Below, piece by piece: positions 21,774 to 49,028 of a DNA stretch of 64,000 nucleotides. The DNA is taken from positions 18,301 through 82,300 of the forward strand of contig JANQGX010000089.1 in the NCBI GenBank assembly GCA_028282885.1. The letters run 5' to 3'. Within the stretch, counting starts at the first letter, position 1, and every line of letters starts with the position of its first letter. Source of the stretch: SAR324 cluster bacterium (GTDB lineage Bacteria; SAR324; XYD2-FULL-50-16). The notes under the pieces are model-generated. The model was not told the origin of the DNA. It saw only the letters and a list, made by a program, of their open reading frames with translations, and did not search any database. The position numbers were made by a program, and so were the translations under genes.

Positions 21774-21832
21774 TTTGTTAACTTACTTACTCTGGTCCGA
21801 CAGGGCAGAAATACATTAACCAAGTAGGCGCC

Positions 21833-22765
21833 ATGCAAAACAACAATACAGACCTGATTTTAGGAGGCCGAATCCTGGTGGTTGAAGACCTGGAGGATAG
21901 CAGGTTCTATCTGCAAAATCTCCTTGAACAAAAAGGATTTATAACCGAAGCGGCGGAAAATGGAAAAGTGGCCTTTCAAAAATTCAAGGAGGGGCGTTTC
22001 GATCTTGTCATCACAGATTTAAAGATGCCGGGGATGAGTGGGATAACATTGCTAAAAATGATCCGGGAAACTAATCCTGATATACCGGTCATCATGATTT
22101 CCGCTTACCGGGAAATTAATGACGTGGTGGAAGCACTAAGAATTGGTGCCTGTGACTACATTGCCAAACCATATGAAGAGAAGGACCTATTCCGGAGTAT
22201 TGACCGGGCAATCCGATTAACGGATCTGGGTAGAACCCAAAAGATCTGTGCCAGCTATGTAACCTCGGAAATAAGAAGATTTGAATTTGATAACCAGCCC
22301 GAATATATCAATTCGATGGCCCGATTTCTCTGCCGGGATCTGGCCCTCCAGGGAATGCACGCCGAAATGCAGTCAATGCAGGTTTCCCTGATAGAAGCAC
22401 TTAATAATGCGATTTTTCATGGAAATCTGGAAATCAGTTCCGATGTCAAAGATTCGAATGATATCTCCAGTTTCAAACAGTACCTGAAGATAGCCAATAA
22501 AAGAAGGTCCCTGAATCCATATAAATCGCGGAAGGTGACCATTGTTTATACTCTAAACAGTGAAAAAACCGAATATGTAGTCCGGGACGAAGGACCCGGA
22601 TTCGATTTCAAAACTTTGCCGGATCCCTTAGATCCTGAAAGCTTCATTAAACCGACTGGTAGAGGTATTTTACTGATTCAGACTTTTTGCGATGAGGTGA
22701 CCTGGAATGAAAAAGGGAATGAGATCACCCTGGTTAAATACCGGGATAACAGGGGTCAGGATTGA
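21833..22765 (+). CDS. REC + RsbW-like anti-sigma Ser kinase (HATPase_c_2)
   Basis: ITDLKMP, EALNNAIFHGN, DEGPGFD and GRGILLI. Confidence 0.88.
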   Translation: MQNNNTDLILGGRILVVEDLEDSRFYLQNLLEQKGFITEAAENGKVAFQKFKEGRFDLVITDLKMPGMSGITLLKMIRETNPDIPVIMISAYREINDVVEALRIGACDYIAKPYEEKDLFRSIDRAIRLTDLGRTQKICASYVTSEIRRFEFDNQPEYINSMARFLCRDLALQGMHAEMQSMQVSLIEALNNAIFHGNLEISSDVKDSNDISSFKQYLKIANKRRSLNPYKSRKVTIVYTLNSEKTEYVVRDEGPGFDFKTLPDPLDPESFIKPTGRGILLIQTFCDEVTWNEKGNEITLVKYRDNRGQD

Positions 22766-22888
22766 TCAAGGTTAAGAGGATTCATAGTCCGGAAAGCATT
22801 TGAAACTACCAGTAGAGATTAAACTGTCCAATATCAGGGTAAATATTCACAAAATAAACCAAGACATCATCACTGAACAGGTGACCGA

Positions 22889-25800
22889 ATGAACAGTCAG
22901 GCAGATGCGGCTTCCCAACAAATAAAAGGCTGGGTGTCGGGCCAAAATCCGACATTAAGATATGCCACCCTGGGATTTCTTATGGGGTTGGTATTCCCTC
23001 TTTTCAGCACCTTAATTGAAAGCTGGAACAGATTTTCAGTCATCAGTTTCGACTATATCCTGAGAGTCCAAAGCGAAACCCCCCTGCTCTGGGTAATCGA
23101 CCTGGCACCGGTTGTTCTTGGGCTGTTTGCTGCGTTCATGGGGATCAAACAGAAGAAAATTGCAGGTATCATAAGTACCCTTAGACAAACAATTAAAACC
23201 CAGACTGGTGAACTCGTACAGGCCAATCGTCGGCTGGCAGACATCCTTCAATCCATGGGAGACCTTGTAATCATCCTGGATAAGAAGGGTTGGATAAAGG
23301 AAGTCAACATAGCGGTAGTTAAATCCTTTGGATTGGAAGAGACCGACCTGATCGACCAGCCGGTTTCGATTCTTTTTGGAGTGGAAGATCATAAAAGAAT
23401 CAGCTCAAATTCTCCTGTGGACATGTTCGATTTCGGATTCCAGAAACACATCGAAGGGACCTATCAAACACGGTACGGTCACAGTATCTGCTTGGAAACA
23501 ACGGTAACCAATATATTAAACAGCCTGGGAAAGGTGGAAGGTGTGGTGTGTGTATCTCACGATATCAGTGACCGAAAAAAAAGGGAGGAAATGCTGGAGA
23601 AAAGCAGAAAAGCGTATGAATCCCTGTTTGAAGCCTCTCCTATTCCCATCATCGTCGACCAGGATAACGGGATCGTTTTTCATAACCGGGAAATCGAAAA
23701 CACGCTGGGATTTTCGGCTGACCAGATTCAAAGCAAAACCCTAGAAGAATTCATCCATCCTGACGACAGGGAAACAGCATTAAACGGGCACTCAAAAGTT
23801 GAATCAGGCGTTCAAAACAACGGGAAACCTGTTTTTCGCATCATTACCCCTGATGGCGAAACCCGCTGGTTGGAGGTCAGGTCGACAAGTATGACCTGGA
23901 ATGATAGACCTGCCCTGCTCAGTTTCATTATCGATATTACCGATCGGCACAAAATGGAACTTGAAATACAGGAAAGTGAAAAGCAATATCGCGGGCTAGT
24001 CCAGTCGATCAATACCATTGTCATGAAAGTTGACAACCAGTTTCGATTTACCTTCCTCAATAAATTCGGGCAGGAGTTTTTTGGATACAGTGAAGAAGAG
24101 GTATTGGGATTAAGCGTTTTGGATACCATCACGCCCAAGAGAGATGCGAAAGGAAATGATCTCCGGTCAATGACCCGGAAAATCCTGGAAAACCCTGCCG
24201 AATTTACGGAAAACGAGAATGAAAATATCCGCAGCAATGGAGAACGGATTTGGGTCGCTTGGCGAAACCGACCCGTTTTTGATGAACAGAACAACCTGCT
24301 TGAAATCCTGTCTACCGGATATGATATCACAGAAAGGGTAAATGCCGAAAACATTGTAAAACAGAAAACCGCACAACTTGAAGACAGTATTAAGGAGTTA
24401 AACTGCCTCTACGGAATGTCCAAACTGACAGAGTTGCACGGAAAATCACCTCAAACCTTCCTGCAGGAGACAATTGAACTCATTCGATCATCCCTACAGT
24501 ATCCGGAGTTGGCCGGAGTTAAACTGCTCCTCAAAGGAGAGGAATACTTTACTTTTGGGTTTCAGAATTCCCTCGTGAAGATATCTGAAGTCATTTATAA
24601 AAATCAAACACATGTCGGCACTCTCGAGGTTCACTACCGATATGACGAATCGAAACGAAGCATCGTTGGATTTTTGACCCGGGAGACAAAACTGTTGCAG
24701 GTCATTGCAGATCGGATCGGTAGAGCCCTGGAGCACTTTGCCCTGGAAGATGCCCTTAAAGAAAGCGAGACCCGCTATAAGCTGGTTTTCAATAGCGCTC
24801 CTATACCCCTGCTTGTAACCCAAGATGAAAAGTTTTGTTTCGCTAACAAACAAGCCGAAGCGCTTTTTGGATATTCCAGGGAAGATTTGTTCTCAAGGCC
24901 CTTTATTGAGTTTGTTTACGAGGAGGACAGGAAAATTGTCTTCGACAGATACCAGAAAAGAATTCGGGGAAAAGAGGCAATACCGAATTATTCCTACCGA
25001 ATTCTAAATAGATTAGGGGAAGTCAGGTGGGTAGAAATCATATCTATCCCTCTTGCCTGGAATAACAGACCAGCCACCTTGAGCTTTCAGATGGATATTA
25101 CCGACAGGCTTGAATCAGAAAAAAAGATCAGGGAGCAGAATCAAATACTGGAACAAGTGCACAGCCAGATGACAGATGAACTAGAGCAAGCCCGACTTGC
25201 GCAGCTCACCCTGCTCCCGGCCAAAATCCCCAAACTGCAGAATATCAGGGTCGCCAGAAGATATGAACCCATTACACACATTGGCGGTGACTTCTATGAC
25301 CTTTTTAACGAGAAGGACCGCCTGGGAATCCTGGTGGGCGATGTTACAGGGCATGGTATTCCGGCCGCGCTTCTCTCATTCCTTTTTCTGACAACGTTTA
25401 AGAATCACCAGCAGAACGGTAGCAAACCCGATGAGATTATCAATCGAACCAACACGATGCTTGCGGGAAACCTGCCACAGGGCAAATATGCCAGTATGTT
25501 TTATTGCAGCTATCACCAGTCTGAACGAATACTCAGGTTCAGCAGTGCCGGACATCCTCCGGCCATTCTGCTGCGACCGAATACCGGTGAGCTGATCTAC
25601 CTGAAAACCGGAGGCATGGTCGTAGGCATGTTCAAAGACCCCATGCTGCCTTTTGAAACCAGGGAGATCGAGTTACAGCCCGGTGACAAGGTTCTCATTT
25701 ATACGGACGGGATTATTGAGATTTCCGACAAACAGAACAAGATGCAGGAACCGGAGATCTTCGAAGAGTTTCTTAGCACCCAGATGCAGATTCCTATCGA

Positions 25801-25897
25801 AAAACTGCTGGACAAAATCTATCGCTATTGTCTTAGCGTCACCGGTTTCGAGGGATTTGACGATGATATAACCATGATAGGACTGGAGATATTCTGA
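22889..25897 (+). CDS. TM - multi-PAS - PP2C/SpoIIE (RsbU-like) phosphatase
   Basis: Two N-terminal TMs, four PAS domains, GGDFYD, GDVTGHG, YTDG and DDITM. Confidence 0.9.
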   Translation: MNSQADAASQQIKGWVSGQNPTLRYATLGFLMGLVFPLFSTLIESWNRFSVISFDYILRVQSETPLLWVIDLAPVVLGLFAAFMGIKQKKIAGIISTLRQTIKTQTGELVQANRRLADILQSMGDLVIILDKKGWIKEVNIAVVKSFGLEETDLIDQPVSILFGVEDHKRISSNSPVDMFDFGFQKHIEGTYQTRYGHSICLETTVTNILNSLGKVEGVVCVSHDISDRKKREEMLEKSRKAYESLFEASPIPIIVDQDNGIVFHNREIENTLGFSADQIQSKTLEEFIHPDDRETALNGHSKVESGVQNNGKPVFRIITPDGETRWLEVRSTSMTWNDRPALLSFIIDITDRHKMELEIQESEKQYRGLVQSINTIVMKVDNQFRFTFLNKFGQEFFGYSEEEVLGLSVLDTITPKRDAKGNDLRSMTRKILENPAEFTENENENIRSNGERIWVAWRNRPVFDEQNNLLEILSTGYDITERVNAENIVKQKTAQLEDSIKELNCLYGMSKLTELHGKSPQTFLQETIELIRSSLQYPELAGVKLLLKGEEYFTFGFQNSLVKISEVIYKNQTHVGTLEVHYRYDESKRSIVGFLTRETKLLQVIADRIGRALEHFALEDALKESETRYKLVFNSAPIPLLVTQDEKFCFANKQAEALFGYSREDLFSRPFIEFVYEEDRKIVFDRYQKRIRGKEAIPNYSYRILNRLGEVRWVEIISIPLAWNNRPATLSFQMDITDRLESEKKIREQNQILEQVHSQMTDELEQARLAQLTLLPAKIPKLQNIRVARRYEPITHIGGDFYDLFNEKDRLGILVGDVTGHGIPAALLSFLFLTTFKNHQQNGSKPDEIINRTNTMLAGNLPQGKYASMFYCSYHQSERILRFSSAGHPPAILLRPNTGELIYLKTGGMVVGMFKDPMLPFETREIELQPGDKVLIYTDGIIEISDKQNKMQEPEIFEEFLSTQMQIPIEKLLDKIYRYCLSVTGFEGFDDDITMIGLEIF

Positions 25898-25996
25898 TTC
25901 CGGTCTTTCATGTTTTCTAAGTGTTCTGATTTTATTATCCGGACTCGGCAGCTCCGGCTGCCTTACACTAAACCCAATCAAAAAAGAGGTATGGCA

Positions 25997-26326
25997 ATGG
26001 AAAAAATAATTATGGATAAAAACAACACCGTTGTTTGGGTTCCCACTGATGAATTAGAGGATCCGGCCAATCTGAAATCTCCACTTGAAGAGTTCAAGAA
26101 AAGTGGAATGCAGCAGGTTGTTCTCGACCTGACCGCAAAAGAATGGCTGACCAGTTCCGAAATAGGAGCGGTGATGTGGGTATTTAAGGAGCTGGAAGCT
26201 CTGAAAGCCAAACTGTGCCTGGTTGCAGTCTCTCCTTTTGTTTTAAAAACCGTAAAACTGACCGGTATTGACCAGTTGCTGGAAGTCTTTGATTCCAGAG
26301 AATCAGCGCTGAATCAAACCCATTAA
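25997..26326 (+). CDS. STAS-domain anti-anti-sigma (RsbV-like)
   Basis: VVLDL...LTSSEIG...VKLTGID. AGAGGT RBS upstream; alternative ATG at 25991. Confidence 0.85.
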   Translation: MEKIIMDKNNTVVWVPTDELEDPANLKSPLEEFKKSGMQQVVLDLTAKEWLTSSEIGAVMWVFKELEALKAKLCLVAVSPFVLKTVKLTGIDQLLEVFDSRESALNQTH

Positions 26327-26338
26327 GCCAATTGAGCG

Positions 26339-28708
26339 ATGGAAGCATTAAAAATTGATAGCCGGCTCTCTTCGGATATTGACGAGGAGTTTATTCGCCA
26401 TTTGAAAAACCTTTCGATATTCAAAGAACTGACCCTTCCCCAGCTCCAGATCATCACCAAAGCTGTCAAGCTGAAACAATTTGAGCCGGGGGCGGAACTG
26501 ATTATCCAAGGTTTCCCGGTCACAGCCGTCTTTTTTATCAAGAACGGTCTGGTGGATGTACTGGTTAATGACGATCGGGTGGCCCAAAGGGGTGAGTTGG
26601 ACACCATTGGTGAAATGTCCTGCCTGTCGGGAGAACGTTTTGCCTCAGCAACCGTCAAGGCCGTCACCCGCTGTCAGGCCTGGGAGATTGAACGCGAACT
26701 TTTTATAAGTATAATCAATTCGATACCCAGTTTGCGATCGCAAATGTTTTCCTTGATCTCCAGTCGGTTGCAGCAAATCAGCCATCGATTCTCAGAAATA
26801 CTGAAGCACATTCCCCATGGAATTATAAAAATCGATGTTCAGGGGCTCATCACCGACGAGTTTTCCAGCCGCTGCATCGAGTATTTCGGTGTCAGCCGAT
26901 TGACGGGCAAAAGCTTTGGCGAATTGTTATTCGTGGATGATTCCAAATTGAAAAACCGGTGGGAAGAGACGATTCAATCCATGGTGGAAAACGGAAGCGA
27001 TATCACCTCAAAAATCAGAACATTACCAAGTGAGGTAACTTATCCTCATCCTGACGGAACAAATCGGATCTTTGAACTGTTTTACCATGATTGCAGGGAT
27101 GAATCGGGAAAACTGGTCGGTTTTGATATCGGAATGGATGATGTCACCCGTAGCCGTTATTATAAAACACAGCTTTCCTCATTCAAAGACCTGCTCACCA
27201 GGATGGAGCAATTGCTCATTCTTTTCGATTCGGAAAGCGGTTTGGTGATACAGGAAACCATCAGCAAGTCAAAAATCGGTCAATTACACTTCCCTTCCTG
27301 GAAAAATCTGAAGGGGAGTAACATCCTGTCCAGCATATTAAGTTATCGAAGCTCTGAAGAGCGCCAGCATCTGGACCGATGGCTGAAAATGCTTCAAGAC
27401 CCTTTTGTTTTGGAATCCATGGATGGAAATCAACTCGCCGATTTGGCCCCCAGGTTTGCGATTGAAACAGCAACCGGCGATGTTGCCGAACTCACCTTTT
27501 CATTAGGTAGAAATACACCCAAAGGTTACAGGGAGATACTTTGCAGTCTGAAATTCCTGGAAGCGGGCCCTGATTGCGGACCACCCGTTTATTCTACCAT
27601 GCAGCTCATGGAGGAAATCACTGCGGCTGAAAAAGAGCATTCCAGGAATCTGCCTGAAGCATTGAATGAAATGCAGACGTCACTGGATATTGTCCAATCC
27701 TTGATGTCGACGCCGGACAATCTCTTAAAAAACCAAAACCGCATCGCTGCAATCATTCATTCGGTGAAAGGCCTGGGACAATCTTTCGGTCTAAGCACCA
27801 TCGCCACCGCATCTCATGAGTTCGAGGATGTTCTTGGTGATACCCTCAAAGGCAATCAAAATCCCGAAACATCCGAACAATTGATAGATTTATTCAAATC
27901 CCTTTTATCGCTTATTCTGGTTTCCAGGAGTCTCTGCAAGACTGAGCGGGATTTGGACTTGGGGGTAATCCGGAACAGAAAACCCGAGATTCAAATATCT
28001 CAGAAGAATTACAAAGCCTTGCACCAGCACTTTGCCCGAATTGTGGAGAGTTTTCAAAAATCACCTCACAACCAGGATGATCTGTCTGCATTGATGGTTC
28101 TGAAGAAAGAAATCGAATCATATGGTCAGACCAAACCTGGTGATGTTTTTCCCAGATTGCAGCGGATCGTCGCTGATACATCCAACCTGCTGAATAAAAA
28201 AGTAGAGTTCATCATCCACGAAAAATCCACAGCAATGATTTCGATTGAAAAGGGCCATGTGTTGAATTCCTGCTTGATCCAACTGGTAAAAAACGCCGTC
28301 TGCCATGGGGTTGAAACCAAGGAGGAGAGAAAATTCCTGGGCAAACCTGAAAAGGCCCTGATTGAACTGATTATTGCCCGAAATGGGACCAATCTTGTCG
28401 TCTGTGTCAAAGATGATGGCAAGGGGTTGAATTTTAAAAAAATAGCTGAACGGGCGCTACTGATGAAACTGGTGGATGCGGAAACCTGCCAGAAACTGCT
28501 GGAAGAAAAAAACCACGAACATATCGCCAATTGGATCTGGGAAACCGGATTCAGCACTTCGGAATCGATATCGCTGGCTTCGGGTCGAGGCGTTGGAATG
28601 AGTATGGTTAAGGAAGAGATAGAAAGACTGGGGGGAACAGTCCGCATAGAAGCCACGGAAGGCAAGTGCAGCCGAATTACCCTGCACATTCCGATAAACG
28701 ATGATTAA
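26339..28708 (+). CDS. cNMP-binding - PAS-like - Hpt - CheA-type HATPase kinase lacking a CheW domain
   Basis: cNMP domain GEMSCLSGERFASATVKA, Hpt IIHSVKG, and CheA-like LVKNAVCHGVE, DDGKG and SGRGVGM. The protein ends right after the ATPase domain. Confidence 0.87.
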   Translation: MEALKIDSRLSSDIDEEFIRHLKNLSIFKELTLPQLQIITKAVKLKQFEPGAELIIQGFPVTAVFFIKNGLVDVLVNDDRVAQRGELDTIGEMSCLSGERFASATVKAVTRCQAWEIERELFISIINSIPSLRSQMFSLISSRLQQISHRFSEILKHIPHGIIKIDVQGLITDEFSSRCIEYFGVSRLTGKSFGELLFVDDSKLKNRWEETIQSMVENGSDITSKIRTLPSEVTYPHPDGTNRIFELFYHDCRDESGKLVGFDIGMDDVTRSRYYKTQLSSFKDLLTRMEQLLILFDSESGLVIQETISKSKIGQLHFPSWKNLKGSNILSSILSYRSSEERQHLDRWLKMLQDPFVLESMDGNQLADLAPRFAIETATGDVAELTFSLGRNTPKGYREILCSLKFLEAGPDCGPPVYSTMQLMEEITAAEKEHSRNLPEALNEMQTSLDIVQSLMSTPDNLLKNQNRIAAIIHSVKGLGQSFGLSTIATASHEFEDVLGDTLKGNQNPETSEQLIDLFKSLLSLILVSRSLCKTERDLDLGVIRNRKPEIQISQKNYKALHQHFARIVESFQKSPHNQDDLSALMVLKKEIESYGQTKPGDVFPRLQRIVADTSNLLNKKVEFIIHEKSTAMISIEKGHVLNSCLIQLVKNAVCHGVETKEERKFLGKPEKALIELIIARNGTNLVVCVKDDGKGLNFKKIAERALLMKLVDAETCQKLLEEKNHEHIANWIWETGFSTSESISLASGRGVGMSMVKEEIERLGGTVRIEATEGKCSRITLHIPINDD

Positions 28709-28767
28709 GGGCTTTGAGATAACCTGTTTTAACGTAAATCAATGTAAACCAAGCAAGGGAAAATCTA

Positions 28768-30477
28768 ATGACTTATCTGGATTTTAGTAATGATCGACAT
28801 CTCGACCTGCTTTCATCGCAGAAGATTGATCCTTCAAATCTGAAGAAAACAATCATTCAGTTTAAGCAGTTCAATGATCGATTTTACCATTCCACAAAGA
28901 AAAATGAACATATTTACACAATGCTGAGTTCGGGTGAAATGATGCTGAACGGCTACCTTCCCTACAAGAACATGCCGCTCAAAGAAAAAAAAGAATGGGA
29001 AACAATCAAAGACCTCAAAACAGGAGATAGGGGATATGTCAACCGCTACCTGGTCATGGAACTGGAAAAGATCATGCCTAGACTTTACCGGGAAATCATC
29101 TACCCTCTCTACTCAATTCAAGTATCGGAAAACCGGATTGAAGCCCCCGAGTTATCAGACGATATCAATGCCCTGCTGGTTACTTCCAATATACCGGGAT
29201 GTTTCAGATTCCTGGAAAAAATGGGGAACTACAAAAAAGGTGTCTTTAATCCCCTCCGCAGAAACTACATTAGCTTCATTGAAAACAAAATATTAGACAC
29301 AATTACCCAGTACCTTAAATCCGTGGAAAACGAGCTGGATAAGCTTGATCTGGCCCTATTCGGCAACAATCATCAAACAAGCTGGTCTTTTATAGAAGAT
29401 ATAATTCTCAAGTTATGCAGTCGTGCCGATCCCAATCACGATGATCCAATCAGCACTGAAGCTATCAACAGTCTGAGATCCATTTACATCTCCTTATTCA
29501 ACATTGCCATGATCTGGTTGATCGAAAGAGATCAGGTCCCCATCTCTTTTCGTCGATTACTGCCCGCAATACCGGATCGCCTGGACTTCTCAAAAGAGGG
29601 GTTGCAGGACGACAATGCCTGGAAAAGATATCAGGATCACCATTTCCTGTTCATGCGTCTTCCCAAAGATCAGAAAGAAAAGCTCACCTCCTGCCTGGGG
29701 ACACTTACCGCGGCTCAAAGAGTTATGTGGATGGGCTGTCTCGGTAAACAGGAAATTCAAGCTCTGGTTTTGCCCATGGTTTCACAAAGAGGAAGATTCG
29801 AAAATCTGGCCACTGCAGCATTCCGACTGAAGGATCCGGGTGAGGAGGACAGTTTTTTCGGTTCCAGGGTCTGGTCGGTACTCCAAACTATATACAGCAA
29901 GTATTTTTCAGGAAAGGACATTGTTTCAAATGAAACGCATCACTTGTTTGGAAGTGCAAAGCAACAAAACGAAGCCCCGGTTAATCCGAAAATCGAAATT
30001 GGACATGAAGGTGAGGAAACCGATTTTTCATATATTCGAGACCTCAGGTTTCTCGTTGTGGATGACTCCGAAAAAATCCGCAAGATGACCATCACTGTTC
30101 TGGAAAAAGAAGGAGTGAATCAAATACATGAAGCAGCAGACGGGGAGCAGGCCTGGGAAATCATCAATCGACAGCCGCTTGATATCATCCTCTGCGATTG
30201 GATAATGCCCAACTTAACCGGAATCGAACTGGTCCAAAGAATGATGCAGGTGGAAAACCTGGCCAACAATGTCGCCTTTCTGATGCTGACCACCGTCAAT
30301 GACAAGGCATCCATCGTTGAAGCCCTGAGTGTTGGGGTGCGGGGCTATTTGATCAAACCATTTTCCAGAAAGCAATTGCTGGAGAAAGTTGGTTTTGCAT
30401 CCAAATGGCTTAGCAAAGAAAGACTGGCAGGGAAAGTACCCGTTCAAACCGATCCGACGCAACCCGCAGCTTTCTGA
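28768..30477 (+). CDS. Unknown ~420-aa N-terminal domain + CheY-like receiver (paralog A)
   Basis: REC motifs VVDDS, LCDWIMP, MLTT and LIKPF. Aligns full-length with 36206..37876. Confidence 0.85.
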   Translation: MTYLDFSNDRHLDLLSSQKIDPSNLKKTIIQFKQFNDRFYHSTKKNEHIYTMLSSGEMMLNGYLPYKNMPLKEKKEWETIKDLKTGDRGYVNRYLVMELEKIMPRLYREIIYPLYSIQVSENRIEAPELSDDINALLVTSNIPGCFRFLEKMGNYKKGVFNPLRRNYISFIENKILDTITQYLKSVENELDKLDLALFGNNHQTSWSFIEDIILKLCSRADPNHDDPISTEAINSLRSIYISLFNIAMIWLIERDQVPISFRRLLPAIPDRLDFSKEGLQDDNAWKRYQDHHFLFMRLPKDQKEKLTSCLGTLTAAQRVMWMGCLGKQEIQALVLPMVSQRGRFENLATAAFRLKDPGEEDSFFGSRVWSVLQTIYSKYFSGKDIVSNETHHLFGSAKQQNEAPVNPKIEIGHEGEETDFSYIRDLRFLVVDDSEKIRKMTITVLEKEGVNQIHEAADGEQAWEIINRQPLDIILCDWIMPNLTGIELVQRMMQVENLANNVAFLMLTTVNDKASIVEALSVGVRGYLIKPFSRKQLLEKVGFASKWLSKERLAGKVPVQTDPTQPAAF

Positions 30478-30508
30478 TGACCAGAGCAGATTAATCAAGG
30501 AGCCATCC

Positions 30509-32989: not shown

Positions 32990-33038
32990 CCCGGAAAATT
33001 CGGGCAAATTATTGAGGCAGACGACGGGAGGTACCAAA

Positions 33039-34292
33039 ATGACCGAACAAGAAACCAGCGCCGGTACGAAAACATATGAACGACCCGGTATTGTCGATCC
33101 CCAATTGATAAAACGGATCAAAACCGCTATGAAGATTGCCGCTCCCGAAAAAGATTCATATTGGGAAATAGAGCCAGTCGGTCAGGATGAGCAAAAGAAA
33201 AAGAAGATTCTGGGTATCTTCAAAAGACCGACCTTAAGCGAAGACCTCACCCGGGAACTGAGGAAGGAGGTCGTTCAGACACCGGGTAACACCCTCTCGA
33301 AGGTTAACAGGTTAAGGAAGAAGTATCCGAATGACGGCCTATTGGTTCTGTTCTCATCCATCTGCGCCTATGGCAATGCCATCAATTCGGGAAGCAAGGA
33401 AGGGGCGTTTCACAGCTTCAAATCTGCTGTTCAGGACGCTGCAATAGCCATCTACAGTGACCAGGTTTGTCTGTACAGCATGGAGATGTTTTTCAAAAAC
33501 TACTTTGCCTATCTCGACAGGTTCAGAAGATTCCAAATCGCCGTTTACGAGGAAATGGTTCAGGATCCGCAACTTGATGGTTATAAAAAAGATTTTCTCA
33601 ATGCCATACAGATTTCAGAGCAGTTGTTCGCCGAAAAAACAGGAGTCCAGAAAGTCATCAACCAGTTGAAGAAGCGCATCAAATCCTCTATGTACAATAC
33701 CAACATTGATGCCCCGTTAATCCGTGAGGCAGCACATCAAATCGTCAATGGGAAAGCTTCCGAAAAATGCAGGATGGGTACCGCCAGCGAAACCATCGCC
33801 TTTGTGCATGCCATGGCGTCCACTTTCGCCCGGGTTCCCATATTGTTCGGTGTGGTAGACAAAATACTGGGACAGCTTCCTGATCTGCACAAATCTTTTG
33901 TACTTAGAAAGATCTCTATTTCTTCCATTCGCAATTTTGTCAAGCTCAGAATGGCTGCTGCAGAGGGGGACAAGGAACTGATGTCCAGGATCAGTCAGAC
34001 CATATTCAAGGAAAACACCGCCGCCATGATCAAATTAGAGGGGCAATCGCTTTACCAGCCCTATGAAACCGATCCCTTCTTCAATATCGCCTACCTGGCC
34101 GAACTAAGCCATGGCTCACGAGGGGATTCTTACTATCAGGAATTAATCACAACAGCAGTTGATGCCATGGAAGAGGTGATCAAGCGGGACATGTCGAAAA
34201 ACAATGTCTTTACCGAAACTGCCACCAAACTGTCCCGAAAACTGAGTATTCACAAAACCCCCGACTCCGTTGAAGAGAACAGCTCAGCCTGA
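33039..34292 (+). CDS. Hypothetical helical protein
   Basis: Long ORF with GGGAGGT RBS before 33039; no recognised motif. Confidence 0.75.
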   Translation: MTEQETSAGTKTYERPGIVDPQLIKRIKTAMKIAAPEKDSYWEIEPVGQDEQKKKKILGIFKRPTLSEDLTRELRKEVVQTPGNTLSKVNRLRKKYPNDGLLVLFSSICAYGNAINSGSKEGAFHSFKSAVQDAAIAIYSDQVCLYSMEMFFKNYFAYLDRFRRFQIAVYEEMVQDPQLDGYKKDFLNAIQISEQLFAEKTGVQKVINQLKKRIKSSMYNTNIDAPLIREAAHQIVNGKASEKCRMGTASETIAFVHAMASTFARVPILFGVVDKILGQLPDLHKSFVLRKISISSIRNFVKLRMAAAEGDKELMSRISQTIFKENTAAMIKLEGQSLYQPYETDPFFNIAYLAELSHGSRGDSYYQELITTAVDAMEEVIKRDMSKNNVFTETATKLSRKLSIHKTPDSVEENSSA

Positions 34293-34403
34293 TCCCTGCA
34301 ACCGATTAAGGTTTGGGCACAGTGCAACTGAATAATGGATAAGGATGTTCTTGAGTATCATTTGAATTGAAAACGACCAACTCAACTAACCAACAGGATA
34401 ATC

Positions 34404-36125
34404 ATGGGAATCCCCGCATCAAAGTTAAACTCGGAACAAACCACCTGGTATGCCAAGATGATGATTGCCGCCATCCTGGCTGATGAAGAAGTAAGTGCAA
34501 GCGAAATTGGTTTTTTAAAACATATTGCAGATATGATTAAAGATCCGGAGGAAAAAAAAGCACTCCTCTCCATGATCAGCAACCGGGAAAAACCGGCGGT
34601 TTATGTTCCTGAAAACACATCCAAAGAACTGCTGGCCGCTGTTTATCTCGAGTTGATATCGATTATCATCTCTGACCAGGAGTTTACCAGGGAGGAGCAA
34701 CAGTTTTTAGACCGGGTGGCCAAAGTTTTTGATTTTAGCCCCAAATACAAGAATGAGCTGATGAAATGGGCGGAAAGCGGACTTCAACTGAATGAACAGA
34801 AAAGAAGACTGCTTCCCAATAATTCCCAAAATGTCAGTATCGTCGTTCCCGTTGATAAACTGAACTCTGAGCAAAAGACCTGGTATGCCAGTATGTTGGT
34901 CGCTGCAGTGATGCTGGACGGGGAGGTAGATAAATATGAGCAGGCATTCCTTAAGGTCGCTTTGAATATCGTCGAAAACAAGACAGACCGGCAAAGACTC
35001 TCCGGGCACATAAGGAATAAAATAAAACTCCCGATTACCGGTCCTCCCGACATGCCCATGAATGTGCTGATTGCGGTAATGGTGGAAATCATTCAAATCC
35101 TTGCTGTCGACGAAGCGATCAGTGTGACCGAGCATTCACATCTGCAACGACTTGCCCGCTTATGTCAGATCCCCCCGAATCAGTTTGATATAATGTTGGA
35201 ATGGTGTAATCGAAGTATCCGCTGGAAGAAGAGCAGATCATCGTTGATTGGCGATTGCTCACTGAATAGCCGGAAAACAAAAATCGGCCCGAGGATTCTT
35301 GTTGATAATCCCGATAACTCATCGATTCAGAATCGCTACTACCATTGCTTTGTTTGCGAATCCCCGGACAAATTCCCAGCTTTCTTTTTAAGACCCCTAA
35401 GCCAGGAATCCAGACAGAATATTTTTGGCATCACTACTTATCAAACGGCTGCTCCCGGTTTTGATTTCATCGATTACAACCTAGTCAATATGATCATCTG
35501 TCCCAACTGCTTTTTTGCCAGCAAGGAAAAATCGCTTTTCCGAAAGAGTCCCGCCGATAAACCACCTGAGATACTGGATGAAGCTCACTTCAGAAGGGTG
35601 TGGCTCAAAGAAATAGAAAAAAGAAGGCGTTTTTTTACCAAACCGGAAGAGATCACCAGCCTGAATCGTTCTCTGCTAACAGTGGTCAATTCCTTCAAAA
35701 TGGCCATTGAGATTGCAAAGAAACTCGGAGAACTGAAAAAGAACGATGCAATGCGTTGGGAAGTAATCCATCTGCTTATGGTACTCTCCGAAATCCTGGT
35801 CTCGAACAACAGAATGAAAGAAGGTTTACAAACCCTGAATGATGCCTGCATCAGGGCCAAATCTCTTTTTGATACAACCGTGGTTAACAGCATCTCATTT
35901 AAGTGTGCACGTCTTTTGATCCTGTTCGGACTCTATAAAGGCGAATTCAGGGTGGCTTCACCGTACCTGGAATTCCTGCGTGACCTGAAATTGAACAAAC
36001 TTGATCAATTGAATCAGAAAGATAAACAATTGCTGAATAAAGTTTTCGGGGAAATGAAGAGGGCCGTTGAGAACAGGAGCGAGTATCACAAAGATCATCT
36101 TGAAGGGTTTCATCGGTATTGTTGA
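34404..36125 (+). CDS. Tandem TerB-like domains + DUF2225-like Zn-binding/helical domain
   Basis: Two repeats KLNSEQ.TWYA.M..AA...D.EV...E..FL, then CFVC...ICPNCFFAS and a helical tail. Confidence 0.78.
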   Translation: MGIPASKLNSEQTTWYAKMMIAAILADEEVSASEIGFLKHIADMIKDPEEKKALLSMISNREKPAVYVPENTSKELLAAVYLELISIIISDQEFTREEQQFLDRVAKVFDFSPKYKNELMKWAESGLQLNEQKRRLLPNNSQNVSIVVPVDKLNSEQKTWYASMLVAAVMLDGEVDKYEQAFLKVALNIVENKTDRQRLSGHIRNKIKLPITGPPDMPMNVLIAVMVEIIQILAVDEAISVTEHSHLQRLARLCQIPPNQFDIMLEWCNRSIRWKKSRSSLIGDCSLNSRKTKIGPRILVDNPDNSSIQNRYYHCFVCESPDKFPAFFLRPLSQESRQNIFGITTYQTAAPGFDFIDYNLVNMIICPNCFFASKEKSLFRKSPADKPPEILDEAHFRRVWLKEIEKRRRFFTKPEEITSLNRSLLTVVNSFKMAIEIAKKLGELKKNDAMRWEVIHLLMVLSEILVSNNRMKEGLQTLNDACIRAKSLFDTTVVNSISFKCARLLILFGLYKGEFRVASPYLEFLRDLKLNKLDQLNQKDKQLLNKVFGEMKRAVENRSEYHKDHLEGFHRYC

Positions 36126-36205
36126 CGTTTTAACAGATCGTCTAAATTGTCTTCAGAGAAGTTGTAGCGACCGGAAGCAAAAAACAGTGTTGCTGGAGCA
36201 AATTC

Positions 36206-37876
36206 ATGAATCTCATAGATATTGAAAATTCCAGGGATCAGCAACTGTTGAAGCAATATGGCATCACTACCGAGCAGTACGATAGAATGCTGGTTGTTGT
36301 GGAACAGGCCAATGAGAGCTATTTTCGTCTCACTCCCAATCATGAACATTTTTACAAGATGTTAATGTCGGACGAAACCCTGTTGAGCTCTGAACCCGGT
36401 TTTACTCAGCTATCCGAGAATGAAAAAGAGGAATGGTGTAAAATAAAAAACACCCGGTCAGGTGATCGCGGCTTTGTTTTCCGCTGTATTATCTCTATCC
36501 TGGAATCCGTCTGCCCGAAGATCCTGGATGAGCTTGTTCGACCGCAGCTTGCCTCTTCTCAAAGCGACAATGCGACTGACCATCTGGATTTATCCAATGA
36601 AATCGATACCCTGCTGCTGGGCTGCAATATACCGGCCTGTTTCGAGTTCCTTGACAGGCTGATCCAGTACAAGACAGGAATATCTCAAGCTTTACGCAGA
36701 TCCTATTTCACCTACATACAAATACGAATTCTAAACCTCATTTCCGAATTTTTGAAAGCATTCGAAAACGAGTCAGGGGTCATGGAGACAGCATTGCTGA
36801 ACGATAAACTCCTTTCAGCCTGGTCGAACATGGGGGAAGTCATTCGCAGAATCTGCCAGCAAGCCAGTCCCGGTCACCATGACCCATTAAGCCTGAATTC
36901 GATCAATTGTCTGCGATCCATCTACATATCGTTGTTTAATGCAGCCACGAACAGGTTGACAGAGAAGGGATCTGTTCCGAAACCGTTTCTTTCGTGTCTG
37001 CCAATCATACCCGATGCCATTGATTTTTCTAACAAAAAACTGGAAAAAGAGAATGCCTGGATTCGATATCAAAAACATCGTTTCCTCTTTTTGCCTCCTC
37101 CCGGCGGGATTAGATCCGCTCTGATCAAAACCGTTTCTACCTTTACACCATCGCAGCGAATTACCTGGTTGGGGTCGCTGGGAAAATCCGAAATAAGAAC
37201 CCTGATTCAGCCCCTGGTAGCTGAAACCGCAGTCTTCGAATCTCTGGCAAGACAATGCAAGGAGAGTCCTGAAGACGATGAGCAGTCTCTTTTTTTTAAA
37301 ACCAGGGTGTGGGACGCCTTGACATATTTCTACACGGAATGTCTGGCTGGAAGTTCAACTGTCTCGGAATCCCTGCACGAATTGTTTGATCAACCAAAAG
37401 GGAGCAGATCCGGGCCTTCAGATTCCGAAGGTGAAGCCGATCTGTCAGTTATCAGAAATTTATCGTTCCTGGTCGTCGATGATTCCGAGCGGATTCGGCA
37501 GATGACGATCAAAGTGCTCCGGGAAGCCGGAATTGAGAGAATAGCCCAGGCTGCAGACGGTACGGAAGCCTGGAGGATATTGCAAAAATATGCTGTCGAT
37601 GTCGTCTTGTGCGACTGGATTATGCCCAATATGGCAGGCATAGACCTAGTCAAGAAAATGATGCGGGTTGAGCGGATCGCCCAAAAAACCACCTTTTTGA
37701 TGCTGACTACTGTGAACGTAAAAGCTTCCATTGTCGAAGCACTTAGCAGCGGCGTCAGGGGGTATCTAATCAAGCCGTTCACCCGTCATCAGCTTCTTGA
37801 AAAAGTATATTTCGCAACGCAATGGCAAAGAAAGGAGCAACAATCAAAAGCCAGGGTAGCCACTTCAGCGGTTTGA
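36206..37876 (+). CDS. Unknown N-terminal domain + CheY-like receiver (paralog B)
   Basis: Homologous to 28768..30477 (GDRG.V, NIP.CF.FL, HDP.S...IN.LRSIYISLFN). Receiver is intact. Confidence 0.85.
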   Translation: MNLIDIENSRDQQLLKQYGITTEQYDRMLVVVEQANESYFRLTPNHEHFYKMLMSDETLLSSEPGFTQLSENEKEEWCKIKNTRSGDRGFVFRCIISILESVCPKILDELVRPQLASSQSDNATDHLDLSNEIDTLLLGCNIPACFEFLDRLIQYKTGISQALRRSYFTYIQIRILNLISEFLKAFENESGVMETALLNDKLLSAWSNMGEVIRRICQQASPGHHDPLSLNSINCLRSIYISLFNAATNRLTEKGSVPKPFLSCLPIIPDAIDFSNKKLEKENAWIRYQKHRFLFLPPPGGIRSALIKTVSTFTPSQRITWLGSLGKSEIRTLIQPLVAETAVFESLARQCKESPEDDEQSLFFKTRVWDALTYFYTECLAGSSTVSESLHELFDQPKGSRSGPSDSEGEADLSVIRNLSFLVVDDSERIRQMTIKVLREAGIERIAQAADGTEAWRILQKYAVDVVLCDWIMPNMAGIDLVKKMMRVERIAQKTTFLMLTTVNVKASIVEALSSGVRGYLIKPFTRHQLLEKVYFATQWQRKEQQSKARVATSAV

Positions 37877-37910
37877 GAACTCATGTCATCAATCATATGA
37901 TCAGAAAAAC

Positions 37911-40790
37911 ATGACAAAGCGAGAGATAAAAGCAAGGAAATCTTCAGTGCCTTCAGGAATCACGGCAACGCAAAGCCGATCCACAAAACCATCCTCAGGA
38001 GAGGTGAGTGACTTGTTCCGCGAAGGATTGCAGCTTTCCGTTGAAGAAGAGACTCAACTTGCGCAGGGCCTGGAAAAAGGATTGGCATATTTCAACCAGT
38101 GGAATGAATCCCGGATGGAGCTGGCATTCGATTCCTTCGACCTCTCTATGAAAAGAGCTCTCTACGAAATCATCTATCTGCTTCATATCAACGATCCTAA
38201 ATTGGAAAACTGGAAATACAAAACCTATCAGCCATCCAACCCCAGAAACCATAATGAACAGGAGAAGACCGCCTGTCTTTATTTAAGAGACGCACCCTTC
38301 GGAGTAAAGGCAATTGACAGGATCTCTTCCGTCTTCAAGGAGGAGTTTGAGGATTATGTTCTGGAAACCTTCGGGGAACCGATTCCCACCCCACAGGATA
38401 ATTCAAATCCAGCGATTGAGGGCTTATATAGTATTGGTTCCATCGGCACCGTGGGGCATAAAAACATCGATTCTGATCTGGATCTTCAGGTCCAGTACAA
38501 CCTGGAACCCTCGGACACAAACCCTGCGGACTGGAATGATGGTCTGATACTGGAAAAACTTAAGCGTGTACTGAAAGGCTATCAACAAAAAGTGCTTAAG
38601 CAAGAGACAATTGCAAAAGAAGTGATGCCACCGGAGTCTCTGAAGAGAAAAGCTGACCGTATGGCACGACATAAGCTGAAAGCAGCCTTTCCCTTTCTGT
38701 ACCAGCAGTTGATAACCAAAGAAAGGAATATTTGTACTGAAATAAGGAGAAAAAACAGTCAGAAGCTGAAAAGGCAACTTGTTTTCGAGATAGTGAGATT
38801 GATGAGTGACACCAGTGATGGTGAGGAACTGAAAAACCGCGAAGAACTGCTGGTATCGCGAATAAAATCCATTCAAAACTATGTCACTGATAAGTTTCCG
38901 GACGCGGAAATCTACCTGTTTTCCTTTTCCAGGGAGAACCTGCAAAAAGGGAGTTTCGGATCAACGGTTGAATCAAAAGAGTCATCGGGTGGTGCTTACG
39001 AGCTTATATTGAATTATGAAACCCTGTTTCCGGGGATCTTTTTCACTCCGGTTGTACCCAGCCATTTTTTGTTTTCTCAGGACATCAACAACGCTCCTGA
39101 TCAGTTCGCGCGTCTGAATGAACAGATCAGGTTCGGGCTGTTAAAAGGCTATGACAGTGTTGCCGGTTTGATTAACGACCAGGGTCCCACTCCCGACTTA
39201 ACACCTGGGTATGTGGCAGATCATTCAGCCGCGGCATATTGGGAAGCTTTCAAGGGTTCTTCCGGCAATCTTCCCAAAGCCACCCTGAACCTGTTGCGAT
39301 TTGAAATGCTCCTGGAAGCGGATTTAAACAAAACCAATATCCAGATGGTCAAAAATCCGGACTGCATCGACGGGTTGATCCTGCCTTCCAGACCCGAACA
39401 GGAGAAAAAGCATCACAGATCCGAATTTCCCTTCCCCATAGGACCCTATCTGTTTTCAACCGACGAGACGAAAATTCCTGTTGAATATAACGATGCGGGC
39501 CAGGAGATGATCTTTCCTCCGGACAGGATGAAAGACTTTGAGGAAAAACATCCGAAATTGAAACAGGATCCCTGGTGGTTAAGATACAAATCGTTGAAAA
39601 TTGCTTATGGTCGTCCCGGATTGGTTCCGGATGTGCCGGACAGCGCCATTCCCAAGATTTCCGATACCATAGACCTTGCATTCGCCCTTCATATCCGAAT
39701 TTCCGATGTTTTTACAAAACCAGGTAATACCGGGGCTTCTTTACGTCATCGGGAACAAGTCTTAACGGATTACCTGGCGGAGGTTTTTCCGAACGACTCG
39801 CCCCAGAGACATCGACTGCATGCCACTTTTGTCGGTGATGTTAAAACCGTAAATGAGTTCGAAAAGGACCTGCGTGAAATCTTTCAAAGTAGTGTGGATC
39901 GCATACATGAGAAAGTCTCCAAACCAAACGCCGGTGAAAAAAACAAATCCAGCGATGAAGAACAGATCTGGTATCACTACTACAAGAAAAGCTTCCAGGC
40001 TCCACCCAATGTGATTCAAAAATCGATATTGAACCACCTCCAGGTTCCACGAGGAAGATTGCAGATTGGTTACAAGGCTGAAAGCGGATGGTTTTTTAAA
40101 TCTTTGCAAAAAAGCCAATCAATGAACCGCAGGTTTCAATCCTCCGTTATCGACCTTCTGCCGGACGAAATTATATTGGTGGAACACCCACATTTCCTCA
40201 GCGGATTGGTCTACTGTGTCATCAACGGATACTATGGCATCTTTAACAGGGGTCGGCTGGACGAGACGAAAACCGCAATCGAATATGACAGGCAGAACAT
40301 TAATGTGGGATCGACAAAAGACAATGAACTGGCCTTTCTGAGACCAGATCAAATTGATCGTATTATGGAAAGCATACTGGAAGCTTTTCCTGAACGCAAA
40401 GTCAGCTATCTTGACTGTATCAGCAAAGAGAGGGCGATAAACGAAGTCATGATTTTTCTGAACTTGATGAAGTTTGGTCAGCTATCCATCCTTTATCGCG
40501 ACAATTTTAATACCTATTATGCGGATCAGTTTATCTTGGCAAACTTTGAAAAAAACACCAACACCTATATCGCTTCCTATGAAAAAATGTTTAAATCCAG
40601 TGAAATAAACCTGGTGTTGAATCGGTTTTTCCTTAGCAGATCCATCAATCCGGATAAGATTTCATTGAATGCCTGGGTGAATCCCAACAGTGTTCAGACA
40701 AGTCATGCCAGTCCGCAACTCAAAGCCAAGGAAATTATGCTCGCCGACGCCTTCAGGGAAACAATCAAGGCTTTTAAACAACCCGAATGA
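37911..40790 (+). CDS. Divergent class I adenylate cyclase-like nucleotidyltransferase
   Basis: GLYSIGSIGTVGHKNIDSDLDL resembles the class I AC G.Y.MGS..S..Q...SDLDIW motif. AAAYWEAFKG...PKATLNLLRFE resembles GASLWQLYK...PYKAVLK.LLLE. Confidence 0.8.
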   Translation: MTKREIKARKSSVPSGITATQSRSTKPSSGEVSDLFREGLQLSVEEETQLAQGLEKGLAYFNQWNESRMELAFDSFDLSMKRALYEIIYLLHINDPKLENWKYKTYQPSNPRNHNEQEKTACLYLRDAPFGVKAIDRISSVFKEEFEDYVLETFGEPIPTPQDNSNPAIEGLYSIGSIGTVGHKNIDSDLDLQVQYNLEPSDTNPADWNDGLILEKLKRVLKGYQQKVLKQETIAKEVMPPESLKRKADRMARHKLKAAFPFLYQQLITKERNICTEIRRKNSQKLKRQLVFEIVRLMSDTSDGEELKNREELLVSRIKSIQNYVTDKFPDAEIYLFSFSRENLQKGSFGSTVESKESSGGAYELILNYETLFPGIFFTPVVPSHFLFSQDINNAPDQFARLNEQIRFGLLKGYDSVAGLINDQGPTPDLTPGYVADHSAAAYWEAFKGSSGNLPKATLNLLRFEMLLEADLNKTNIQMVKNPDCIDGLILPSRPEQEKKHHRSEFPFPIGPYLFSTDETKIPVEYNDAGQEMIFPPDRMKDFEEKHPKLKQDPWWLRYKSLKIAYGRPGLVPDVPDSAIPKISDTIDLAFALHIRISDVFTKPGNTGASLRHREQVLTDYLAEVFPNDSPQRHRLHATFVGDVKTVNEFEKDLREIFQSSVDRIHEKVSKPNAGEKNKSSDEEQIWYHYYKKSFQAPPNVIQKSILNHLQVPRGRLQIGYKAESGWFFKSLQKSQSMNRRFQSSVIDLLPDEIILVEHPHFLSGLVYCVINGYYGIFNRGRLDETKTAIEYDRQNINVGSTKDNELAFLRPDQIDRIMESILEAFPERKVSYLDCISKERAINEVMIFLNLMKFGQLSILYRDNFNTYYADQFILANFEKNTNTYIASYEKMFKSSEINLVLNRFFLSRSINPDKISLNAWVNPNSVQTSHASPQLKAKEIMLADAFRETIKAFKQPE

Positions 40791-42738: not shown

Positions 42739-42741
42739 AAA

Positions 42742-49027: not shown

Positions 49028-49028
49028 T

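Follow-up and report, generated by a model that had tools for sequence, protein, structure and literature searches.

A putative multi-input phosphorelay joined to a partner switch, with an accessory cyclase-like gene and orphan protein families, in a SAR324-type bacterium

The stretch analysed here (the window) comprises 64,000 nucleotides of a SAR324-type bacterium, whose genome is referred to as G000. It contains ten plus-strand open reading frames (ORFs) at 21833-40790, with spacing that ranges from a short overlap to 123 bases. An earlier note had described these closely spaced, co-directional genes as a cyclic-nucleotide signalling system, and the ten genes are present as described. The borders, however, were drawn too narrowly. 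The unbroken plus-strand run that ends at 40790 begins at 12941 (or 14209) and not at 21833, and the block that is collinear in a second genus covers about 8226-34292. The upstream genes omitted from the ten-gene picture encode CheR, CheB, hybrid kinases and a conserved sigma54 activator, and they alter that picture. The ten genes are the 3′ two-thirds of a larger accessory signalling island, at about 8226-40790 in the window. We consider that the whole is best explained as a multi-input phosphorelay joined to a partner switch, with the cyclase as an accessory, and give this reading a probability of about 0.45. The island follows known signalling logic in a new variant, and some of its proteins belong to orphan families.

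Seventeen genes are listed, named g01-g14, u3, the activator and the binding protein; paralogs and orthologs are named after them. They are given below with their coordinates, strand and the source of the assignment (REC, receiver; TM, transmembrane segment; HTH, helix-turn-helix; Hpt, histidine phosphotransfer; cNMP, cyclic nucleotide monophosphate; aa, amino acids).

8226..10190, plus strand: u3, REC-PAS-HisKA-HATPase-REC hybrid kinase, outside the ten-gene finding (Pfam)
10556..12577, minus strand: activator, REC-sigma54 activator whose C-terminal domain, atypical and about 250 aa long, replaces the usual HTH, outside the ten-gene finding (Pfam)
12941..14110, plus strand: periplasmic binding protein (Peripla_BP_6), 99 bases upstream of g01 (Pfam, NCBIfam)
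14209..18333, plus strand: g01, RsbK-like membrane hybrid kinase, TM-periplasmic-TM-HAMP-GAF-coiled coil-HisKA-HATPase-3xREC (Pfam)
18326..19171, plus strand: g02, CheR methyltransferase (Pfam CheR, 137 bits)
19168..19737, plus strand: g03, CheB methylesterase domain without a receiver (Pfam CheB_methylest, 188 bits)
19731..21773, plus strand: g04, REC-PAS-HisKA-HATPase-REC hybrid kinase (Pfam)
21833..22765, plus strand: g05, REC (112 bits) plus RsbW-type HATPase_c_2 (58 bits) serine kinase (Pfam)
22889..25897, plus strand: g06, four PAS domains plus SpoIIE/PP2C phosphatase (160 bits) (Pfam)
25910..26326, plus strand: g07, single-domain STAS protein, RsbV-like (35 bits) (Pfam, NCBIfam)
26339..28708, plus strand: g08, soluble CheA-class kinase with cNMP-like, PAS, Hpt, linker and catalytic domains (Pfam, NCBIfam, PADLOC)
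28768..30477, plus strand: g09, X-REC A, an all-alpha domain of about 400-420 aa without known family (the X domain) plus a CheY-like receiver (Pfam, model)
30389..32989, plus strand: g10, coiled-coil plus alpha/beta protein of about 830 aa with an acidic tail (no family)
32955..34292, plus strand: g11, helical protein (no known family)
34404..36125, plus strand: g12, two TerB-like units, C-terminal CxxC...CxxC and helical region (Pfam TerB)
36206..37876, plus strand: g13, X-REC B, old paralog of g09 (Pfam)
37911..40790, plus strand: g14, 959-aa nucleotidyltransferase, remote relative of the class I adenylate cyclase N-terminal domain (Pfam)

Judging from alignments with homologs, g10 is likely to start near 30509 and g11 near 33036, in both cases later than the listed ORF. 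The Pfam scan covered 27 window ORFs, with 47153-49577, 53639-54853 and 59626-63998 left out. It recovered nearly all of the domains named in the earlier note; DUF2225 in g12 was not detected even at E values up to 10. No CheW or methyl-accepting chemotaxis protein (MCP) family was found in the scanned ORFs. The earlier statement that the run lacks CheW, MCP and CRP genes was accurate, yet CheR and CheB genes lie directly upstream on the same strand.

Comparisons were made with a phylum set of 88 species genomes, including G000, G018, G039 and G076. G018 belongs to a different genus of the same family, and four genomes in the set (88-92% complete) are from the same genus as the window. Five loci were independent, namely the window, G018, G039, G076 and the metagenome locus L052; a further locus (L051) repeated G018, and loci L002-L012, with flanks of about 1.5 kb, were uninformative on synteny. 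Family-wide protein searches covered 5.8 billion clusters, and the X-domain profile search covered 1.84 billion.

Homologs of g01-g11 were found in identical order on contig C14 of G018, with 39-62% identity (g02 62%, g03 62%, g04 47%, g05 55%). Because these genes are collinear in another genus, their grouping is more than chance. The trio of RsbW-type kinase, PP2C phosphatase and STAS protein was also present in G018, and a binding-protein homolog (31% identity) lay upstream of the g01 homolog. A 7.4-kb contig of the same genome (C99) carried the activator (56%) convergent with a u3 homolog (56%), arranged as in the window. In L052, g05 was 54% identical, and g06 homologs were found both there and in G018. 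The G018 locus lacked g12, g13 and g14, and g11 was followed there by an opposite-strand MASE3 kinase.

Four of the 88 genomes (G000, G018, G039 and G076) encoded the X domain, and g08 orthologs covering residues 15-440 occurred in the same four only. In a further 14 of the 88, only the cNMP-like plus PAS piece was related to g08, within other proteins. The activator C-terminal domain was more widespread (18 of 88 genomes, including all four X-REC holders); within the window's own family it was limited to G000 and G018. Thus g08, X-REC, g10 and the atypical REC-sigma54 activator were found together in only four phylum genomes. None of the four same-genus genomes had an X domain, a g08 ortholog or the activator C-terminal domain.

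Within the five independent loci, X-REC adjoined a g10 homolog in four, and in the fifth (G076) one STAS gene lay between them. The g08 gene adjoined X-REC in three of the five. In G076 the g08 homolog was on another short contig (C468), divergent from an activator 49% identical to that of the window. Since g08 and X-REC are present together in four of the 88 genomes and adjacent in three of the five loci, the kinase and the unknown-domain receivers are, judging by their distribution, a true pair. The g11 gene followed g10 in three loci (window, G018 and L052), and G039 had an unrelated 462-aa protein at that place. The G039 operon consisted of REC-g08, X-REC, a g10-like protein, the 462-aa protein, a class III cyclase with a seven-transmembrane (7TM) sensor and the atypical activator, which closes the module and was 42% identical over its full length to that of the window. 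No CheR or CheB homolog was found by tblastn in the 40 kb of G039 contig examined. Directly upstream of the G039 module, at 11607-13087 of locus L039 (contig C77), there was an AbiEi/AbiEii toxin-antitoxin pair, which fits an accessory, possibly mobile, region. In L052, positions 2526-5072 between the REC-RsbW and PAS-PP2C genes were occupied by a TrkA_N potassium-channel gene, a second TrkA_N gene and an HD_5 phosphohydrolase.

The g08 family had 17 members in the cluster search; the other nine matches were classical CheAs, aligned over the kinase core only. The Hpt domain of g08 scored 30.9 bits in Pfam, and all 16 aligned members share H474, S475, K477 and G478 (HSxKG). Conservation in the family alignment extended to the N, G1 and G2 boxes. 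Residues 603-786 matched two NCBIfam CheA models with 120 and 105 bits, well short of the whole-protein cut-offs of 950 and 793. Pfam gave no P2, P3 or P5 domain in g08 (no PF01584, no PF02895), and PF01584 was present in all nine classical CheAs. As these three domains are missing, g08 is predicted to be a CheA-class kinase unable to couple to chemoreceptors via CheW.

The N-terminal sensor of g08 matched cNMP_binding (PF00027) with 47.3 bits, against a cut-off of 27.5, and was closest to PKG, PKA and PycTIR (phmmer E 1e-27 for PKG and 7e-11 for PycTIR, 8jsk). In the pocket, G91 and E92 were invariant, and the Ser-Ala that follows in the phosphate-binding cassette was kept. PMC11224242 describes R97 of PsPycTIR, ten residues past the Glu (E87), as binding the cyclic phosphodiester and as highly conserved among cyclic nucleotide-binding (CNB) proteins. 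At the same distance from its Glu, g08 has Ala102, in 16 of 16 members, and in PKG alignments no g08 Arg falls on the canonical Arg. An invariant DRVxQRG stretch lies upstream of the pocket. The genome as a whole contained 26 cNMP-type domain matches. GE...R[ST]A was kept in five of them, and one paralog had Ala as g08 does. The CheA-like kinase of the earlier note thus has the CNB fold, the Hpt histidine and the kinase boxes, but not the cassette Arg. Canonical cNMP binding by g08 is doubtful. The pocket may take another ligand which, since the Arg is missing, need not be cAMP or cGMP.

A cNMP-like-PAS kinase akin to the N-terminal part of g08 was seen in a genome without X-REC (G033, contig C33, about 16100-27500, loci L027/L028), about 7 kb from an adenylate cyclase (AC)-like gene. 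In G000 itself, the neighbour of a class III cyclase gene encodes a 765-aa protein in which the cNMP domain retains the canonical Arg (contig C26, 169854-172522).

The resemblance of g08 to PycTIR raised the question of a Pycsar-like anti-phage defence, in which a cyclase activates a cNMP-dependent effector. The cNMP-like domain scored 69 bits against the PADLOC PycTIR model, the distribution of the module is patchy and the AbiEi/AbiEii pair is just upstream in G039. Against this, the PADLOC matches to Pycsar models were on g08 only and spanned the generic cNMP fold alone, neither g14 nor six other proteins of the ten gave a PADLOC match, a TIR or membrane effector is missing, and the domain make-up points to a two-component relay with a sigma54 activator. 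We regard such a defence function as extremely improbable.

The two X-RECs, g09 and g13, were 43% identical over 552 aa. Their family comprised 15 proteins in the 5.8 billion clusters. The X-domain profile retrieved three representatives, two of them family members and the third a distant 761-aa protein without a Pfam family. Structure prediction with Foldseek confirmed the receiver part of these proteins and left the remainder without recognised relatives. The receiver keeps the acidic pair DD, the acceptor D, and the T and K. It was CheY-like in the full-length model (pLDDT 85; Foldseek E 1.8e-6), with a VIA Z of 21.7 and a root-mean-square deviation (rmsd) of 1.5 over 130 residues, and was 32% identical to CheY. 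Every structural match of the full-length model lay on the receiver. For the X domain modelled alone, which was all-alpha (pLDDT 75), Foldseek listed nothing at E <= 0.001. The highest VIA Z, 6.6 (8fqc_U1, rmsd 4.6, 170 aligned), was under the noise level quoted for helical proteins, and no chain reached Z >= 8. These searches thus recognised no fold relative of the X domain, which is not proof of a new fold. Its many invariant polar residues make a binding or catalytic pocket possible. An HD-type or class I phosphodiesterase reading of its H-[HD]-D-P motif was dropped, since neither fold search listed such a chain; the fold is not thereby excluded. The X-REC tree did not decide whether g13 and g14 arrived jointly.

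Neither g10 nor g11 belongs to a family in Pfam, NCBIfam or PADLOC. Single sequences of g10, g11, g12 and g14 matched nothing useful among PDB sequences, and alignment profiles of g10 and g11 gave nothing under E 0.04 against PDB. In the Atlas search g10 had no usable match, and the G018 homolog of g11 had only low-recognition matches. Two paralogs of g11 are found elsewhere in the genome. The g10 tail (residues about 780-866) carried an IYxLGSLFSFDD-like motif and an invariant C-terminal Phe in five of five homologs, and in sequence this motif resembles short docking peptides. Complex predictions for X-REC with the g10 tail (690-866), made without controls, scored 0.02 and 0.01 against a mark of 0.32. 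The acidic tail and terminal aromatic residue recall the pentapeptide of MCPs. We considered g10 as a substrate of CheR and CheB and rejected it: there is no classical methylation motif, the aromatic spacing differs, and G039 has a g10 homolog with no CheR or CheB found in the 40 kb examined.

The TerB match of g12 reached 38.2 bits (cut-off 24.4) in two stretches. Two genome paralogs scored 16.2 and 17.2 bits for DUF2225, under its cut-off of 21. The g12 gene was not conserved with the module core. One paralog (TerB-TerB-zinc-ribbon; locus L057, G000 contig C64, 2270-8752) lay among genes for an O-methyltransferase, a single-domain receiver, a CheC/CheX phosphatase, a hybrid kinase and a receiver protein. 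The g12 family thus seems tied to two-component signalling.

In the upstream half, g01 has hydrophobic segments at about 5-30 and 320-345, and its residues 1-344 gave no CHASE3 call in Pfam or NCBIfam. None of the 14 proteins contained a classical MCP methylation motif. The STAS protein g07 has serines within a TSSEIG stretch. The activator contains the Pfam domains REC, Sigma54_activat and AAA_lid_14 and no HTH_8, and its C-terminal domain had no match in PDB or NCBIfam. From these domains it is a candidate transcriptional output.

Taken together, the genes suggest the following course for a phosphorelay joined to a partner switch. The membrane kinase g01 would sense a periplasmic cue, perhaps via the adjacent binding protein, and CheR and CheB would adjust it through its methylation, much like RsbM acting on RsbK in Bacillus cereus. 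With the RsbK/RsbM precedent, the presence of CheR and CheB without chemoreceptors would be explained. The hybrid kinases g01, g04 and u3 would pass through the Hpt domain of g08, which would be the hub, because the receivers at the ends of these kinases call for an Hpt domain, and the sole Pfam Hpt among the 17 genes is in g08. The g08 catalytic domain, governed by the cNMP-like and PAS sensors of the same protein, would load His474, and the hybrid kinases may do so too. From g08 the phosphoryl group would be passed to four kinds of CheY-like receiver, those of the two X-RECs, REC-RsbW and the sigma54 activator. Three outputs would follow, namely sigma54-dependent transcription, the phosphorylation state of the STAS protein as set by REC-RsbW versus PAS-PP2C, and an action of the X domain with g10 and g11. 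A nucleotide cyclase would recur as an accessory that the module can do without; most likely g08 would be modulated through its cNMP-like domain by the cyclase product or a related nucleotide. That the cyclase is an input to g08 rather than an output is favoured because the G039 cyclase has its own 7TM sensor in a module without a membrane kinase. We hold this with low confidence, as the g08 pocket lacks the Arg.

The cyclase-like gene g14 matched Adenyl_cycl_N (PF12633) with 36.2 bits over residues 59-196 (cut-off 27), and with 37.1 bits when the first 300 aa were used alone. The other class I model, PF01295, had no match in the whole genome, whereas an E. coli control matched. Against the NCBIfam class I equivalog NF006981, g14 scored 27.4 bits (cut-off 802). 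Only the Pol-beta-type motif aligned with E. coli CyaA (CyaA 95-119, GS plus SDLD). The motif residues GS...SDxD are essential in CyaA. In the g14 family, G164, S165, S176 and D179 were present in 118 of 118 sequences and D177 in 117, about 100 other columns were near-invariant, and Gln or Glu stood where CyaA has Trp after DxD. The "class I AC-like" label of the earlier note thus applies to the N-terminal model and the Pol-beta motif and does not extend to PF01295 or the class I equivalogs. By its matches, g14 is related to the N-terminal domain of class I cyclases without being a class I cyclase itself. It looks like an active enzyme, since the G-S...S-D-L-D motif and about 100 other columns are invariant or nearly so.

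The g14 family (183 matches) appears largely confined to SAR324-type lineages. Its members were all named hypothetical, except for one PilZ-fusion label and one UniRef name citing the class I N-terminal domain. The PilZ fusion, P0154 (1082 aa), may point to a connection between the family and c-di-GMP signalling in some organisms. Of 41 related genomes, 37 encoded the family, and G000 and its congeners each had two or three paralogs. At 11 other places with the best AC-like relatives there were no g09-g13 homologs and no adjoining module gene; at one of them a partial g08-like kinase lay about 7 kb away.

In a FastTree phylogeny of 56 AC-like members, drawn from best matches and paralogs, g14 fell within a nine-row clade with an SH-like support of 97. 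The AC-like copy of G018 and the paralogs of the window's own genome fell outside this clade. Three further assemblies appear to carry members of the g14 subclade on the same contigs as the module, as inferred from contig statistics only. P0051 (57% identical to g14) was recorded on three contigs, the longest 153055, figures identical to those of the X-REC P0009 and the g08 homolog P0029. P0052 (56%) had a longest contig of 18531 in common with the X-REC P0006, and P0168, in the cluster of P0050 (62% to g14), had 108166 in common with the g08 homolog P0027. The four congeners lacked the module and had no AC-like match above 52% identity. In G039 the 7TM-sensor class III cyclase was at the position matching g14, and in L052 the HD_5 phosphohydrolase was inside the module. 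From these associations, namely the g14 subclade, the G039 cyclase, the L052 HD_5 enzyme and the congeners lacking both, a functional tie between the module and nucleotide-signalling enzymes is plausible and, on balance, probable. It is not obligatory, as G018 has no adjacent cyclase.

An incidental neighbourhood would have g12-g14 beside the core by chance, in a dense island where unrelated sensory genes pile up. Further hybrid kinases, two HisKA_2 kinases and a CheB-CheR-PAS fusion are indeed present in the window, the AC-like family is found mostly in other contexts, and G018 lacks g12-g14. Yet chance would not be expected to produce the apparent sharing of contigs by module and g14 subclade in three assemblies (one contig being just 18.5 kb), the joint absence of both from the congeners, or the cyclase of a different class adjacent in G039. 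We consider coincidence distinctly improbable.

The proposal of the earlier note, taken literally, is more specific. In that reading, g14 makes cAMP or another 3′,5′-cNMP, the g08 domain binds it canonically, the X-RECs are phosphorylated, and the ten genes are self-contained. Both enzymes do lie in one co-directional run, the cNMP_binding match exceeds its cut-off and resembles PKG, PKA and PycTIR, the g14 subclade appears to travel with the module, and the G039 module has a class III cyclase. Opposed to this are the Ala that all 16 aligned members have in place of the phosphate-binding Arg, the fit of g14 to the class I N-terminal model only with PF01295 missing genome-wide, the absence of g12-g14 from the G018 locus, and the conserved unit itself, which reaches 13 kb further upstream (CheR, CheB, hybrid kinases, sigma54 activator). 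Such a closed pathway is unlikely. The narrower claim that g08 reads the g14 nucleotide gained from the contig sharing and the G039 cyclase, and lost by Ala102, by G018 without a cyclase, by the 11 other places and by the other cyclases and readers in the genome. These comprise six class III cyclases, about 25 other cNMP-type domains and at least five CRP-type regulators, so neither the source nor the reader of a nucleotide must lie in the cluster.

The same abundance of readers bears on an arrangement in which the cyclase is an output, the relay controlling g14 via X-REC B, perhaps with g12, and the nucleotide acting elsewhere on CRP-type or other cNMP proteins. Five of the other cNMP-type domains have a canonical pocket, g13 ends 34 bases before g14, the roughly 750 aa of g14 beyond the nucleotidyltransferase core have many invariant residues and suggest regulatory domains, and the PilZ-fused P0154 implies that the family can be wired as a regulated effector. 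The G039 cyclase with its own 7TM sensor looks instead like an input device, the X-REC of G018 has no adjacent cyclase, and any link of X-REC B or g12 to g14 activity is one of position. We likewise judge this arrangement unlikely. Somewhat less credence still is given to an undescribed second-messenger pathway, in which a g14 nucleotide other than cAMP or cGMP would enter the Arg-less g08 pocket and act through the X domain, g10 and g11 and through a sigma54 activator with its DNA-binding domain replaced.

The phosphorelay with a partner switch and an accessory cyclase remains the reading we prefer. It starts from the genes and their domains, the collinearity in a second genus, the co-occurrence in four of 88 genomes and the intact catalytic and acceptor motifs, all of which were seen directly. 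Several observations weigh against it. Each step of the flow was deduced from protein domains and neighbouring genes. Beside X-REC in L052, the place of g08 is taken by a 4HB-HAMP-PAS-HisKA_2 kinase, so g08 is not the only possible phosphoryl donor. No sigma factor gene was found among the 27 scanned window ORFs, the remainder of the genome lying beyond that search. Patterns of the sigma54 -24/-12 type gave 2 and 4 matches where 3.3 and 9.8 were expected, with none in the relevant intergenic regions. The pocket of g08 has Ala102 for Arg, while five other domains in the genome keep the canonical form. As for the cyclase, the shared contigs of the g14 subclade are deduced only from identical contig counts and longest-contig figures, the two other AC-like paralogs of G000 lie by trpBA, RNase H and ChaC genes, and G018, despite its g01-g11, has neither a cyclase next to them nor a member of the g14 subclade. 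Promoter and terminator scans of the window gave counts not above those of shuffled sequences.

The nearest known relative of the upstream half is the partner switch of B. cereus, in which RsbM is a CheR-type methyltransferase. RsbK of this species has the architecture CHASE3-HAMP-GAF-S-helix-kinase-receiver, is methylated by RsbM and drives a partner switch, according to PMC4574943. The island is similar in that a HAMP-GAF-kinase-receiver hybrid (g01) adjoins a methyltransferase (g02), and in that a switch of RsbW-type kinase, PP2C phosphatase and STAS protein, like RsbY/RsbV/RsbW, would be addressed via a receiver. Unlike the B. cereus system, the receiver is fused to the RsbW kinase and not to the phosphatase, the phosphatase has four PAS domains, a cognate CheB methylesterase is present, and g01 has three receivers and no CHASE3 call. 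The island also adds a CheA-class Hpt kinase and proteins of unknown family, and no sigma factor gene was seen near it among the scanned ORFs.

The Pseudomonas HptB-HsbR-HsbA and Vibrio fischeri SypE-SypA systems have an Hpt-dependent relay that ends on a receiver fused to RsbW-type and/or PP2C modules, and these modules decide whether a STAS protein is phosphorylated. A single protein combines kinase, receiver and phosphatase there, whereas the kinase-receiver and the PAS-phosphatase of the window are separate genes, and its Hpt domain sits in a CheA-class kinase with its own sensor domains.

As in CheA, the histidine of the P1/Hpt domain of g08 lies in an HSxKG context, and CheY-like receivers are the proposed substrates; the catalytic domain is probably of the CheA type. 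It differs in lacking the P5/CheW-like, P2 and P3 domains, in the absence of a CheW or MCP gene from the cluster, and in carrying its own cNMP-like and PAS input. CheA is stated to have no sensor domain in PMC10782961, a text that never mentions "cNMP", "cyclic nucleotide" or "PAS". With PKA, PKG, CRP and PycTIR, g08 shares the CNB fold, the Gly-Glu for the ribose 2′-OH and the Ser-Ala; unlike them, it has an invariant Ala where they bind the cyclic phosphodiester with Arg. The likeness of g14 to E. coli CyaA is limited to the N-terminal domain model and the Pol-beta-type motif, and nothing beyond that motif aligns.

The familiar part of the wiring consists of the phosphorelay, the Hpt hub, the partner switch and the action of CheR and CheB on a kinase. 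The CheA-class kinase is unusual in having its own cNMP-fold and PAS sensors and neither CheW nor chemoreceptors. Also unusual are the X domain, g10, g11 and the activator C-terminal domain, which have no detectable relatives beyond a few SAR324-type assemblies. These orphan components appear to be tightly co-inherited, and so may mark an unknown output mechanism. A third unusual feature is the recurrence of three kinds of nucleotide enzyme beside the module (class-I-like nucleotidyltransferase, class III cyclase and HD_5 phosphohydrolase). Should a nucleotide bind in the Arg-less pocket, the cNMP fold would prove to accept more kinds of ligand than are known for it, and the SAR324-specific AC-like family would have its first functional context.

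A literature search by phrases found no paper on a cNMP-regulated histidine kinase. Nothing related was found joining SAR324 with adenylate cyclase and two-component systems, and among the matches listed (title and abstract) for PF12633 and class I cyclases no paper concerned the family of g14. SAR324 is an abundant, uncultured deep-ocean lineage, the regulation of which is, to our knowledge, essentially unstudied.

Beyond the island, the window contained further signalling genes. Two HisKA_2/HWE-type kinases on the minus strand (41338-44505) converge on the end of the cluster, and at the matching place G018 carries a MASE3-HisKA_2 kinase. A plus-strand CheB-CheR fusion with PAS domains (50094-53438, 1114 aa) is followed, after one 404-aa ORF (53639-54853), by a 1460-aa multi-PAS hybrid kinase on the same strand (55192-59574). 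These two form a second methylation-linked kinase set in the window, again without chemoreceptors. At the other end, three tandem plus-strand paralogs (333-5641; 598, 556 and 569 aa) each consist of a Big_5 Ig-like domain followed by RCC1 repeats.

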